The notes: a model not told the origin generated them from the sequence alone. Positions 9,157 through 37,332 are shown, numbered from the stretch's first letter. The stretch: 39,273 nt of DNA from Candidatus Campbellbacteria bacterium (GCA_002747955.1 PDQZ01000003.1:1-39273), one strand, 5' to 3'. Translations and numbers: made by a program.

Positions 9157-9216
9157 TTAAGCAGAATTTTGAAAAAAAGAAAACCACCCAAACTTTTTTC
9201 CAAAATTCTGCTTAAG
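9157..9216. repeat. Long hairpin with C/A-rich loop (divergent member of loop family)
   Basis: CTTAAGCAGAATTTTG...CAAAATTCTGCTTAAG, loop contains AAACCACCCAAA. Confidence 0.7.
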
Positions 9217-9298
9217 TTTGCAGACACTTTTTGGTTTGTCACCAAAAAGAAATTTTTTGAAAATGGGATTGACAACCCTAAATATTGAGGAGTGTATA

Positions 9299-10204
9299 AT
9301 GAGCACGCAAAAAATTAAAAAATTAATTCTTTCCATGGAAAAAGAATTGAAAAGAATTGAAAAAACACTAAACGAAATTAGTAATTCTTTGCAAAAAGAA
9401 ATCATAATTGTCGAAAACGGTGTTGTGGACATCAAGGGGGCCGAAAAAATTATGGGTTCAAAACAATTTTTGGGACCAGAAGATATTAAAAATACCTTTG
9501 ATTTTTATCCTGAAAATATTCCAGCGATTCCTTTTTCTTGGAAAGAGCTGGAGAGAGCTAGGGATTTTGGGCAACACTTAATTCTTTATGTCGAAAAAAC
9601 TAATGACGGGAAACCATTTACTGTTAAAGAAATGGTTGATATTGTGGACAATAAAACAAGTGAGGGGGAAGAAATTTTTTGTTTTAAAACCCATATACAA
9701 GATGATGAAATCTTGAAAGAGCAAACTCCAAGGAGCGGTTGGAGATTAACAGGCCCTGAAGTTGTTAAGGACAGTACGCAGAAAAATTATCTTGAACAAA
9801 CGGATGTTTTGATATCTTATCTTCAGAATGAGGTTTTTGAAAACCAAGAAGTTCCTGAAGTATATCAAAATGCCATTGATCAGTTTTTAGAAAGAAAAGT
9901 TGAGTTTAAAAAGGAGATAGCCTATTCACCTTATTGGGAAGAAGTGACAAAAAAACTTTCAGAAATTTCAATAAGTCAGCTTTTAAGAGAAAGGTCGAGT
10001 GAAATCATATATCGGTTAATTTTACAAGAGAGAAAATATGGAATTAAAGATTTTATTTCAGGAAGCTCTCTATCAAACTCAATAGGTACGAACGGTAAGA
10101 TTGTACATGTTGACATGCACAAACCCAGTGATTGGCATGTCGGAGGAGTGAGAGCGTGTAAAGGTGCTTGGAGATTGGGAGTTTGTTTTTCTCGAGGTGT
10201 GTGA
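9299..10204 (+). CDS. Hypothetical protein; C-terminus resembles CLec-type DGR variable proteins
   Basis: GAGGAG 8 nt before ATG 9299; N-terminal coiled coil; ends ...GKIVHVD...LGVCFSRGV; resemblance is from recall, not a search. Confidence 0.6.
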   Translation: MSTQKIKKLILSMEKELKRIEKTLNEISNSLQKEIIIVENGVVDIKGAEKIMGSKQFLGPEDIKNTFDFYPENIPAIPFSWKELERARDFGQHLILYVEKTNDGKPFTVKEMVDIVDNKTSEGEEIFCFKTHIQDDEILKEQTPRSGWRLTGPEVVKDSTQKNYLEQTDVLISYLQNEVFENQEVPEVYQNAIDQFLERKVEFKKEIAYSPYWEEVTKKLSEISISQLLRERSSEIIYRLILQERKYGIKDFISGSSLSNSIGTNGKIVHVDMHKPSDWHVGGVRACKGAWRLGVCFSRGV

Positions 10205-10262
10205 AGGTAACCGAAATTTGCGTAAGCAAATTTCGGTTTCAAAAAAGTCTGCGTTTTTTAAT

Positions 10263-10290
10263 AAGCCGAGCAATTTTGCTTGGCTTTTTT
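10263..10290 (+). terminator. Intrinsic terminator
   Basis: AAGCCGAGCAA-TT-TTGCTTGGCTT plus T-run. Confidence 0.65.
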
Positions 10291-10292
10291 TT

Positions 10293-10333
10293 GCACGATT
10301 TTGGCTGCGTGGTTGTGTTTGTCAAAATCGTGC
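10293..10333 (-). repeat. 15-nt-loop hairpin family copy (reverse orientation)
   Basis: Reverse complement GCACGATTTTGAC-AAACACAACCACGCA-GCCAAAATCGTGC. Confidence 0.85.
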
Positions 10334-33963: not shown

Positions 33964-35067
33964 TTAGATTAAGAATTCTATAACATCGCCGTCTCGAACT
34001 ATATACTCTTTCCCCTCTGTCCTCAACAACCCTTTCTCCCTGGCAACCTTTTTTGACCCACAAGCCAACAAATCTTTATAATCAATCACCTCGGCTCTAA
34101 TAAACTTATCTTTAAAGTCATTGTGAATAGCAGTTCCAGCTTCAGGCGCTGTTGATCCGTCTTTTACAGTCCAAGCTCGAGTTTCAGCTTTTCCAACTGT
34201 AAAATAAGAAATAAGCCCAAGTAAAGAATAACACTTTTTAATCAAAACATCGATTCCATCAAAGTCAGCTCCAAGCTCCTCTTTGTACAAAGTTTTTTCA
34301 TCGGGTGAAAAAGAGTTTAACTCTCCTTCGGTTTTACCGTCAATTACAATATATTTAAAATCATTTTCTGCAAAATAGTTCATCAAGTCATCCCAAAGCC
34401 CATCATCTTTCGAATCAACATTTTCTCCAGAAAAATCTTTGTTCAAAGCATACAAAATTGGTTTGTTTGTTAAAAGTTGCAAACCTTTTAAAGCTTTCTT
34501 CTGGTCATCTGAAAACTCATCTTCAAACTGAATAATAAACTTCTCATCGTTCAAAATTTCCTGACATCTTTTCAAAACCTTATCCAAAACTTTTGCATCA
34601 GCATCATTTCTTTTCAAATCTTTTTCATTTGATTGCATTCTTTTTTCAACCACTTGCTTGTCAGCCTCAATCAACTCCAAGTTAATAATTTCAATATCAG
34701 TTTTCGGATCAGTTCGTCCTTCAACGTGAATAATCTCAGGATCTTCAAAAATTCTTGATACATGCAAAATCGAATCAACATCTCGAATATTTGCCAAAAA
34801 CTGATTTCCCAAACCTTCTCCTTTCGAAGCCCCTTTTACAAGACCCGCAATGTCTACAAACTCAACAATAGCCGGAACAGTTTTTTCGGTTTCAGCCATC
34901 TCAGCAAGTTGGTGCAGTCTTTCATCTGGCACCTCAACCACTCCCACAGAAGGGTCAATAGTACAAAAAGGGTAATTTTGAGCATCAACTGACTTTTTTG
35001 TTAATGCATTAAACAAAGTTGACTTTCCAACATTTGGAAGTCCTACAATTCCTACTTTTAAACTCAT
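33964..35067 (-). CDS. ychF: Ribosome-binding ATPase YchF
   Basis: [63 protein letters not shown]. Confidence 0.97.
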
Positions 35068-35216
35068 AATTTTTTATTTATTTTTATATTATAACACATT
35101 TTCAAAAACAAAATATAACAGTACTTAAAATACTTTTACACTTGTTTTTAACATTTTTATACAAGTTTTTTTATTTTTCTAAAAACAAAATCAAAACATT
35201 ATGCTAAAATATTGTT

Positions 35217-36602
35217 ATGGATAAAAAAGATTTCAAAATACCACCACAAAATATTGATGCAGAAAAAGCCCTTTTGGGTTCTATTTTAGTAAAGTCAGAT
35301 TCGATTTACGAAATCATAGAACTCGTAACCCCAGACGCTTTTTACGCTGAAAAACACAAAATAATATATCAAGCCATTGTTGAACTTTTTAACAAAAACG
35401 AACCAATCGATCTTTTAACTTTAAGTACAATTTTAAAAAACAAAGGGGTTTTGGAATCAGTAGGCGGGGAAGAGTATTTAGCCGAACTTTCTGTTGCTGT
35501 TCCATCAGCTACAAACATCGAACATTACGCTAAAATCGTTCAAGACAAATCAATCAAAAGAAAAATCATCAAAGCCTCAGAAAACATCGCTCAAATTGGT
35601 TTTGACGAAGCAGAAGACACAGAAGTTTCTGTTGATCTAGCTGAAAAAGAAATTTTTGACATCTCCCAATCAGTCGGCTCATCTGATTTTCACTCAATCT
35701 CAGACTCAATTAAAGATGCCTACGAAAGACTTGAAAAACTTCAAGAAAACGAAGGAAAATTAAGAGGTGTTCCAACAGGCTTTGCATCTTTAGACTACAA
35801 ACTTTCAGGTTTTCAACCGTCAGACTTAATCATTCTTGCTGCTCGTCCATCTGTTGGTAAAACATCTTTAGCTTTAGATTTTGCACGGAAAATCGCTGTT
35901 GAAAATCAAAAAACTATCGCATTTTTCTCACTTGAAATGTCCAAAGAACAGTTAATCGACAGGCTTTTGTCAGCTGAAGCCATGATCGACTCTTGGAAAC
36001 TCAGAACAGGAAATATCAAAGAACAAGCAGACATTGACGCTATCAAAGACGCTGCAGCAAGGCTCGACAGTGCTAAAATTTTCATCGACGACAACTCTTA
36101 CAACAACGTTTTAAAAATGAAATCAGCAGCCAGAAAGTTAAAAAGAAAGCACGGACTTGATTTAATCATCGTTGATTATTTGCAACTTATGGCACCAATT
36201 AAAACAGGAAAAAATAGCTCACCTGTTCAAGAGGTTACAGAAATTTCAAGAGGTTTAAAACAACTTGCCAAAGAGCTTGACGTTCCAGTCATTGCTCTTT
36301 CACAGCTTTCTCGTAACATCGAACACAGGGGGGAAAATTCTGAACCAAGACTTGCAGACTTGCGTGACTCAGGATCAATTGAGCAAGATGCCGATGTTGT
36401 AATGTTTATTCACCGAAACAAATCAGAAGACGATGACAAAGCACGAGAACTTGAAACAAAACTTATTATTGAAAAACACAGAAACGGAGCCACAGGTGTG
36501 GTAAATATGTACTTTAACTCAGACAAAACTTCATTTACAGAACTTGACGAAAAACATTTTGCACAGGTTTCAAGCGGATCCGATGACGATTTTGAATTTT
36601 AA
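35217..36602 (+). CDS. dnaB: Replicative DNA helicase
   Basis: PPQNIDAE, LAARPSVGKT, FSLEMS, IVDYLQL, LSQLSR, DLRDSGSIEQDAD, KHRNGATG. Confidence 0.97.
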   Translation: MDKKDFKIPPQNIDAEKALLGSILVKSDSIYEIIELVTPDAFYAEKHKIIYQAIVELFNKNEPIDLLTLSTILKNKGVLESVGGEEYLAELSVAVPSATNIEHYAKIVQDKSIKRKIIKASENIAQIGFDEAEDTEVSVDLAEKEIFDISQSVGSSDFHSISDSIKDAYERLEKLQENEGKLRGVPTGFASLDYKLSGFQPSDLIILAARPSVGKTSLALDFARKIAVENQKTIAFFSLEMSKEQLIDRLLSAEAMIDSWKLRTGNIKEQADIDAIKDAAARLDSAKIFIDDNSYNNVLKMKSAARKLKRKHGLDLIIVDYLQLMAPIKTGKNSSPVQEVTEISRGLKQLAKELDVPVIALSQLSRNIEHRGENSEPRLADLRDSGSIEQDADVVMFIHRNKSEDDDKARELETKLIIEKHRNGATGVVNMYFNSDKTSFTELDEKHFAQVSSGSDDDFEF

Positions 36603-36617
36603 TGTTAAAATACAATT

Positions 36618-37226
36618 ATGAATAAAATTATTTTTGATATAGAAACAAGAAATATTTTCGCAGACGTAGGAAGTGACAATCCTGCTGATTTAGATATTTC
36701 AGTTCTTTCACTTTATGACTACAAAACCGATAAGTATTATTCTTTTTTACAAGAAGATTTTGACAAAATGTGGCCATTTTTTGAAAATGCAGATGTTCTG
36801 ATTACTTTCAATGGAAAACATTTCGATCTTCCGCTTTTACAAAAATATGCTCCCTTTGATCTAAGCAGAATTAAGCATTTGGACATTTTCCAAAAAGTTC
36901 AAGAAAGTATTGGGAGAAAAATTGGGCTTGATACAATTGCCAACCAAACACTTGGCGAGGCAAAATCAGCAAACGGACTTCAAGCAGTGGCTTGGTGGAA
37001 CGAGGGAAAAGTTGATGAAATCATCAAATATTGTGAAAAAGATGTAGAAGTTACAAAAAATGTTTACGAATATGCAAAGGAAAACAAAATTTTGTATTTT
37101 GAAGACAGAAACACAAAAGCAAAAACTGAAATAAAACTAAATCCTGAAACTTGGGAAGACCGAGAAAATTCTGAAAATGATTTATTTGGTTCAGCGGGCA
37201 ACAATGAGCCTTTAACCTTATTTTAA
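36618..37226 (+). CDS. RNase H-like (DEDD) 3'-5' exonuclease domain protein
   Basis: FDIET, TFNGKHFDLP, YCEKDV. Confidence 0.85.
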   Translation: MNKIIFDIETRNIFADVGSDNPADLDISVLSLYDYKTDKYYSFLQEDFDKMWPFFENADVLITFNGKHFDLPLLQKYAPFDLSRIKHLDIFQKVQESIGRKIGLDTIANQTLGEAKSANGLQAVAWWNEGKVDEIIKYCEKDVEVTKNVYEYAKENKILYFEDRNTKAKTEIKLNPETWEDRENSENDLFGSAGNNEPLTLF

Positions 37227-37291
37227 AAAAGTTAGAAATTAACCAAAACTTTTATTATAAAATTTTTGATTTTTTTAATAAAAAGAAAAAA

Positions 37292-37332
37292 GCCCGATTA
37301 TGACCCACACACCCACCCAGTCAAAATCGGGC
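37292..37332 (+). repeat. 15-nt-loop hairpin family copy
   Basis: GCCCGATTATGAC-CCACACACCCACCCA-GTCAAAATCGGGC. Confidence 0.9.

Follow-up and report, generated by a model that had tools for sequence, protein, structure and literature searches.

The stretch of DNA analysed here (the window) is a whole contig of 39,273 bases from Candidatus Campbellbacteria bacterium (GCA_002747955.1, PDQZ01000003.1), with a G+C content of 30.1% and a genomic C content of 15%. It carries the ordinary chromosomal genes pheS/pheT, recJ, argS, thiI, fur and ftsW, together with genes for an MFS transporter, ribosomal protein L21 and an ABC-F protein; further genes are those for a PIF1/RecD-like helicase, pgk, ruvA, a ComM-like ATPase, ychF and dnaB, and ten open reading frames (ORFs) have no significant Pfam match. 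Dispersed between these genes is a family of hairpins with long loops composed largely of C and A. Eight clear copies are present, referred to by coordinate as 10293 (inverted), 12395, 12761, 14091, 22561, 27283, 29338 and 37292, along with a marginal ninth at 9157. The nearest relatives of the encoded ArgRS are 55-57% identical, and the named ones come from metagenome-assembled genomes of Moranbacteria, Parcubacteria or Patescibacteria; such distant relatives, of Candidate Phyla Radiation (CPR) type, place the host in a sparsely sampled lineage of that radiation. Contigs of identical sequence are found in the Logan assemblies of a single run, SRR6011893.

A covariance model (R1) was built from the eight clear copies and run over the window with its filters off. 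The copies, with their scores under this model, are set out below, together with the promoter that follows one of them and a comparison hairpin.

9155-9217, plus strand: marginal relative (9157), 21.6 bits; 25-bp stem, the outer part of which (GCAGAATTTTG) is type C-like; loop AAAACCACCCAAA, 13 nt, C and A only.
10289-10337, minus strand (hairpin 10293-10333): the sole inverted copy, 63.5 bits; on the minus strand it reads stem GCACGATTTTGAC/GCCAAAATCGTGC and loop AAACACAACCACGCA, and on the plus strand it has one G.T wobble, which pairs in the plus-strand transcript, and a TTTT tail; it belongs to a pile of four hairpins in the spacer between hyp289 and argS.
12392-12447, plus strand: stem of type B (CCCGAAAATTTGG), 66.7 bits, -27.8 kcal/mol; loop CCACACAACCACACAA, a perfect tandem of CCACACAA; begins 16 nt 3' of the hyp91 stop.
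12757-12804, plus strand: stem like that of 10293 (CACGATTTTGAC), 54.3 bits; loop decayed to TCGCGCAACTAAACAC; begins 20 nt 3' of the stop of a RelB-like gene.
14085-14137, plus strand: stem of type A (GCCCGATTTTGAC), loop CCACACACCCACCCA, 74.2 bits; begins 17 nt 3' of the thiI stop and is followed by the promoter on the next line.
14152-14180, plus strand: sigma-70-type promoter, TTGACA-17-TATAAT, a 12/12 match just 3' of the copy at 14091.
22557-22604, plus strand: stem of type C (GCAGAATTTG), 54.8 bits; 20-nt loop that includes AAACGCATCCACGCG; lies between the convergent genes hyp244 and fur.
27283-27335, plus strand: stem of type B, a perfect 19-bp helix, loop AAACACATCCACACA, 71.2 bits; flanked by the genes for the PIF1-like helicase and a DsbA-like protein, which converge on it.
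29334-29382, plus strand: stem of type A, loop AAACACACCCACGCA, 75.8 bits; pgk and the exoIII-like gene converge here, and the copy takes up the greater part of their 72-nt spacer.
37288-37336, plus strand: stem of type A with one A.A mismatch, 70.9 bits.
2900-2956, no strand assigned: comparison hairpin, not a member; a stem-related terminator (GCCCATTTTCGC) with an unrelated, A/T-rich loop of 17-21 nt.

The clear copies score 54-76 bits under the covariance model, and the next match in the window, the comparison hairpin at 2901-2955, reaches 28 bits. This hairpin scores alike on both strands, indicating that its likeness to the family lies in the stem only; for the family itself the right strand exceeds the wrong strand by about 30 bits, a difference that represents the contribution of the loop to the score. 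The loop motif MMACRCANCCACVCR, with at most one mismatch allowed, has 7 matches in the window against 0.18 expected, a count reached in none of 100 shuffles, and all of these matches lie within family hairpins, with none in genes and none free-standing. Calculated folding energies range from -18 to -28 kcal/mol with the loops open (z-scores -4.9 to -10.4), apart from the less stable copy at 12761 (-10.4 kcal/mol, z-score -2.65). In the structural alignment 92% of cells are paired and double changes occur in 8 of 16 pairs, a covariation score that was not matched in any of 500 shuffles; when the partner is shifted by one column, pairing falls to only 52-56%. A 2-3 bp insertion in both arms of the type B stems accounts for part of this covariation. 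The Logan contigs match the window at 100% identity through seven copies, and this independent assembly shows that the hairpins are not the artefact of one assembler. A preliminary description of this DNA had listed hairpins at nine coordinates and proposed that they form a homologous family with compensated stems; all nine are present, with the stems and loops as listed, and the alignment bears the proposal out. It had also set two copies apart as divergent, and this holds for 9157, while 12761 scores as a clear copy with a decayed loop.

All copies are intergenic and, as previously described, lie just 3' of stop codons: the eight clear ones begin 15-88 nt 3' of the stops of plus-strand genes, and three of them (22561, 27283 and 29338) occupy spacers between convergent genes. 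The seven forward copies are preceded by 6-7 A per 8 nt and followed by 4-6 T per 8 nt, and a T-run is present on the transcribed strand in all eight clear copies, the inverted copy at 10293 having TTTTGTAT at this position. The core stem of 10-15 bp, which is G/C-rich at its base (GCCCG...CGGGC) and A/T-rich at its top, is lengthened by the A- and T-runs to a helix of 17-20 bp. An A-run, a G/C-based stem, a T-run and a position after the stop codon together constitute the build of bidirectional Rho-independent terminators, loop length excepted. The preliminary description had contrasted the family with ordinary terminators and in doing so gave too little weight to the plain reading, given that the clear copies carry a T-run and the forward ones an A-run too.

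The family is restricted to the host lineage in the material searched. Pattern scans of GTDB, with one genome per species, gave 0 matches for the type A stem with its loop, 11 single chance matches in unrelated high-GC taxa for the loop with the stem tips, and 9 unrelated terminators for the type A stem with any loop. A scan of JGI metagenome contigs returned 18 chance matches, with no hairpin among them, a pattern scan of IMG/VR returned 0 matches, and BLASTN against phages and plasmids returned none. Rfam gave 0 matches at gathering thresholds and, at E-values up to 5, generic hairpins far below threshold. The loci of relatives were chosen by homologues of ArgRS (55-57% identity), PGK (79%) and ThiI (36%), together with 80 GTDB Patescibacteria ArgRS loci; in the eight nearest-relative loci the model gave no score above 21.5 bits, and it found nothing in 1.21 Mb around ArgRS in the 80 Patescibacteria genomes (88 loci and 1.3 Mb overall). 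The check on presence in relatives, suggested in the preliminary description, therefore yields no family member in these 88 loci. A closer relative, represented by a 2.2-kb Logan contig (L037, PGK 79%), has a different small hairpin 3' of pgk and another gene order, and the Logan contigs that encode window proteins hold no sequence beyond the window. A public ENA metagenome contig with a related ArgRS gene (L047) was seen to contain Illumina/Nextera adapter at both of its ends (1-60 and 2400-2475).

On balance we lean towards reading these hairpins as a lineage-specific family of Rho-independent terminators, mostly bidirectional, in a Patescibacteria chromosome. A copy consists, in order, of an A-run, the core stem of 10-15 bp, a loop of 15-20 nt, the second arm and a T-run. 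Once transcribed, the hairpin and its U-tract would free RNA polymerase where the upstream plus-strand gene ends, and the A-run would let the same hairpin stop a convergent minus-strand gene where one is present. A single terminator module would have been copied and dispersed and would later have diverged into three or four stem subfamilies, with compensatory changes preserving the pairing after dispersal. The C/A-only loop would have been inherited from the founder copy as a passenger, harmless or useful; its tolerance or retention probably reflects the lack of G and U, which leaves it unable to mispair with the A/U-rich arms. The data can be explained without a specific reader of the loop, although one may exist.

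A number of observations weigh against this terminator reading. The loops of 15-20 nt exceed the 3-8 nt usual for terminators, and a simple terminator scan restricted to loops of 3-8 nt listed no copy as a whole hairpin, an omission explained by that loop range. The marginal copy at 9157 has no T-run (2 T in the 8 nt after the stem), which excludes it as a terminator of this kind; a 12/12 promoter (9039-9066) is located about 90 nt 5' of it, and it is more likely to be part of a leader. In a control that collected every hairpin with a stem of 10 bp or more and a 10-22 nt loop and counted pairs with similar loops at the same locus, the window gave 19 such pairs against 0 in 84 loci of relatives, so that hairpins with repeated loops appear peculiar to the host lineage rather than a general habit of the CPR. 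The remaining points concern the loop itself. Between stem subfamilies, loops are identical at 11-13 of 15 positions against 7-10 of 16 for the arms, among which indels and double changes are seen. In seven copies, nine positions of the loop (A3, C4, C6, A7, C9, C10, A11, C12 and C14) are invariant, variation being confined to positions 1-2, 5, 8, 13 and 15. By hand count, 98 of the 105 loop bases are A or C, with 53 C and 2 T, against the 15% C of the genome, and the differences between loops are mainly A/C exchanges that retain the two-letter alphabet; in a genome so rich in A and T, C-to-T changes are expected often.

These features of the loop bear on an alternative that we regard as possible but unlikely, namely that the C/A loop, carried on terminator or 3'-end hairpins, is a sequence-specific landing site. 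Its reader would be either a lineage-specific single-strand RNA-binding factor, for example of KH- or S1-type or acting in termination, antitermination or 3'-end stability, or a G/U-rich RNA. The invariance of 9 of 15 loop positions extends over subfamilies A, A', B and C, the loop is slightly better kept than the arms between subfamilies, and at 93% A or C it is nearly free of T in a 30% GC genome; the confinement of the family to the host, with nothing similar in relatives, would also fit. The loop can be divided into a pair of octamers, MMACRCAN and CCACVCRG, and in the copy at 12395 these form the exact CCACACAA tandem, with the invariant A, C and C at equal places in both; a reader with two domains, or a dimeric one, would fit the two AC.C half-sites, which lie 8 nt apart. 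Against this, the self-similarity of the octamers (4-5 of 8) is that expected by chance for a two-letter composition, and in the other copies the halves match at 4-6 of 8 positions, little over chance for such a composition. The AA/CC alternative at loop positions 1-2 is present in stem types A and B, and the change from AA to CC may represent homogenisation between the loop halves. The C/A strand is in the sense transcript for 7 of the 8 clear copies and for the marginal 9157 (8 of 9), an orientation that would suit an RNA-binding reader, but the transcript of the inverted copy at 10293 has a G/U loop. Mismatches that bear on the folding strand number 3 for G.U against 2 for A.C, a count that does not indicate which strand folds.

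The comparison of loop and stem depends on the level at which it is made. Over seven clear copies the mean pairwise identity is 0.76 for the loop and 0.66-0.68 for the arms, the arm figures being somewhat lowered by the type B indel. Within subfamily A the relation is reversed, the copies at 14091 and 29338 having identical arms (16 of 16) and loops that agree at 12 of 15 positions; likewise, 12761 shares 15 of 16 positions of the 5' arm with 10293 and 8 of 16 of the loop, so that the stem has been kept and the loop lost. The view that the loop is fixed while the stems vary thus stands between stem subfamilies and fails within subfamily A and for 12761, and sequence-specific recognition, which the preliminary description had drawn from a fixed loop, does not follow from these nine copies. 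A constant loop length of 15, also claimed there, does not extend to 12395, 12761 and 22561, whose effective loops are 16-20 nt, or to 9157 with its 13 nt. The window contains no complementary G/T-rich partner for the loop. Taken together, these comparisons hint at constraint on the loop, at least on its composition, although 8-9 related copies on one contig leave shared descent inseparable from constraint. We are rather doubtful that the loop is a recognition element read by a lineage-specific factor for single-stranded RNA or DNA, or by a hairpin-directed HUH enzyme, and would be mildly surprised if a genome-wide census were to reveal true constraint on it. Were such a factor to exist, it could tie termination or 3'-end stability to the state of the cell, or could spread the module.

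The spread of the copies raises a further alternative, which we consider quite improbable, in which the hairpins would be non-autonomous mobile elements of the REP/RAYT, IS200/IS605 or MITE (miniature inverted-repeat transposable element) kind, moved as single strands by an HUH/Y1 transposase encoded elsewhere. The loop, or the junction of stem and loop, would be the site of recognition or cleavage, and terminator activity would be a by-product easing insertion after genes. HUH enzymes read hairpins with conserved loops, the family is limited to one lineage, and the single inverted copy sits in a pile of four hairpins. The copies at 14091 and 37292 are identical at 40 of 41 positions and have an exact 36-mer in common, 23 kb apart and with unrelated flanks. 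The Logan contig L001 ends at 14129, the start of the block common to these two copies, because the common 36-mer branches the assembly graph. By contrast, Logan contigs run unbroken through 9157, 10293, 12395, 12761, 22561, 27283 and 29338, which indicates that these seven copies are without a twin of at least 31 nt with different flanks in the Logan assembly and argues against a recent burst. This pattern suggests an old, diverged family with one recent duplication. Of the recent mobility raised in the preliminary description, a recent duplication is supported for at least the pair at 14091 and 37292, and a recent burst in the family is not. Mobility is further opposed by the stems, which are compensated rather than decaying, and by the gene content: the ORFs of the 39-kb window include no transposase, integrase or Y1/HUH gene as judged by Pfam (Y1_Tnp was unmatched). 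A RAYT/TnpA_REP gene flanked by copies had been put forward as a check, and no RAYT is present in the window. Nor do the copies possess a conserved GTAG-type head, with A-runs only 5' of the stems, target-site duplications or pairing of the kind seen in bacterial interspersed mosaic elements (BIMEs).

A last alternative, which we hold to be very improbable, is a signal acting at the level of DNA (an uptake signal like the DNA uptake sequence (DUS) or uptake signal sequence (USS), a Chi-like site or a priming hairpin), or an antisense small RNA of about 50 nt driven by a minus-strand promoter at 14169-14141. The motif is strongly over-represented, 8 of 9 copies share one orientation, a ComM-like gene is encoded in the window, and Patescibacteria are thought to depend on DNA uptake; the motif is nonetheless confined to hairpin loops and never found in genes, unlike DUS, USS and Chi. 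The GC skew passes from positive to negative near 13-14 kb, a signal too noisy for replichore assignment. As for the small RNA, the preliminary description had noted a possible minus-strand promoter (TTGTAT-17-TATAAT, 14169-14141) directed into the copy at 14091. The match exists, with a minus-strand TATAAT box at 14146-14141, but its -35 hexamer agrees at only 3 of 6 positions, the other copies have no such promoter, and the overlapping 12/12 plus-strand promoter at 14152-14180, which is followed by a ribosome-binding site and small ORFs, better explains this DNA. Promoter-like matches in the window number 97 against a shuffled expectation of 74, barely over chance.

Five small ORFs of 29-42 aa, each with a ribosome-binding site and a hydrophobic, membrane-like sequence, lie within 14152-15000 of the window (starts at 14223, 14336, 14483, 14712 and 14903). 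The 12/12 promoter at 14152-14180 and an 11/12 promoter at 14640-14668 are found 5' of these ORFs, and terminators lie between them at 14578-14609, 14855-14873 and 15000-15027. Upstream of hyp289 (start 9335) there is a perfect TTGACA-16-TATAAT promoter with a TG extension at 9039-9066, followed by three hairpins: 9093-9123, the marginal copy at 9155-9217 and, with a T-run, 9227-9249. The region 9039-9260 may correspond to a structured leader or to a small RNA, about 180 nt long. The copies at 12395 and 12761 flank on both sides a lone gene for a RelB/DinJ-like antitoxin (86 aa, window 12480-12740), which has no adjoining toxin gene. Elsewhere in the window, the pheT product is about 150 residues shorter at its N-terminus than the bacterial model, the match starting at profile position 155, and G+C content rises over the last 8 kb to as much as 0.35, from about 0.28-0.30.

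Duplication of hairpins seems to be general in the host genome. Another hairpin, the 23-nt GC-rich C(UUCG)G-type GCGCGCAGCCTTCGGCTGCGCGC, is also repeated, being identical at 7201-7223 and 10356-10378; the two sites are 3.1 kb apart in the same orientation and are extremely GC-rich for a genome of 30% GC. Two long palindromes are present, one at 18245-18349 with perfect 51-nt arms around AAG, 3' of a TP_methylase gene, and one at 31214-31310 whose 48-nt arms show 98% complementarity, located in the spacer from which hyp149 and ruvA diverge. Both include CCGAAATTTTTTG, like the type B stem of the family, and stems of the GCCCGAAA/ATTTT type are common to the family, the two long palindromes and several other terminators. 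The Logan contig L129 starts within the first palindrome and ends within the second, and the ends of L036, L001 and L129 (70, 2952, 7158, 14129, 18318 and 31251) all fall within hairpins or palindromes; the hairpins at 70, 2952 and 7158 may have genomic twins elsewhere. Other GC-rich hairpins were noted at 4230-4254, 7152-7180, 9093-9123 and 33646-33676, several with TTC or CTT triloops. A 21-nt motif of the ACGTA-N-TACGT type, ACGTATGTGTTATTACGTTGA, occurs exactly at 33552-33572 (minus strand) and 33889-33909 (plus strand), with a variant at 33775-33795. The ComM-like gene and ychF are separated by 461 nt, and the three sites form hairpin tips in this spacer; they could be operators or another hairpin family.

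Several other identities were considered for the family and set aside. A MITE would have flanking direct repeats, and here the flanks are the A- and T-runs that extend the stem, with no insertion sequence in the window. For DUS, USS or Chi the motif is found in hairpin loops only and, at two mismatches to its core, the extra matches above chance are the copies themselves. The integron attC site, with its R''/R' pair RYYYAAC/GTTRRRY, does not agree with stem bases of GCCCG...CGGGC, the neighbouring genes are housekeeping ones, and there is no integrase. No Rfam family was matched at gathering thresholds. The G-runs of the G/T strand are insufficient for a G-quadruplex, pairing of the loop with the Shine-Dalgarno sequence is opposed by its reading CCACC and not CCUCC, and a riboswitch-type terminator would lie on the other side of the gene.

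To our knowledge, experiments have established almost nothing on the transcription signals of Patescibacteria. Operon prediction, binning and strain tracking in the host lineage would benefit from a terminator module that can be recognised and reused, and such a module would provide a defined hairpin for tests of termination by CPR RNA polymerase. If the loop is constrained genome-wide, this would point to a new RNA- or single-stranded DNA-binding factor; if it is not, the family is one more dispersed stem-loop repeat, of a sort common in bacterial genomes. We know of no description of a terminator-borne loop code in any bacterium, and the CPR is poorly understood; a reader of the loop, if real, would amount to such a code, new for bacteria and found in the CPR.

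Comparison with known systems places the family closest to intrinsic terminators, with which it shares a G/C-based stem followed by a T-run and preceded by an A-run, post-stop or convergent sites and high stability. It differs from them in its loop of 15-20 nt in place of 3-8 nt and in the homology of its copies, ordinary terminators being individually unrelated. The REP elements (repetitive extragenic palindromes) and BIMEs of enterobacteria, Pseudomonas and Stenotrophomonas are likewise short extragenic palindromes present in many copies (here 8-9 in 39 kb), often at the 3' ends of genes, and some REP elements act as terminators or mRNA stabilisers. REPs, however, combine a conserved stem and 5' GTAG-type head with short loops, occur as inverted pairs (BIMEs) and are associated with a RAYT gene, whereas the host family lacks a head and pairing, the window encodes no RAYT, and the best-kept block of the family is the loop. 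In Neisseria and Haemophilus, terminators formed by inverted pairs of DUS or USS also consist of a genome-specific short motif that recurs in hairpins after genes; in these the motif makes up the stem as an inverted pair and is abundant in genes, while the motif of the host family is single and confined to the loop. Conserved tips are also known on terminator stems that belong to riboswitches, namely HMP-PP and guanidine-IV (PMC8632094); riboswitch terminators lie in the 5' leaders of particular gene classes, and the host copies at the 3' ends of unrelated housekeeping genes. Families of stem-loop-forming repeats have been catalogued in bacterial genomes (Cozzuto et al. 2008, PMC2267715; Petrillo et al. 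2006, PMC1590033); one survey counted 92 families, present in 29 of the 40 genomes, and two thirds of the families are intergenic with a common predicted fold (PMC2267715). The host family fits this catalogue, none of whose members comes from Patescibacteria. The hairpins described here join these dispersed stem-loop repeat and terminator families, and their unusual trait is the long C/A loop.

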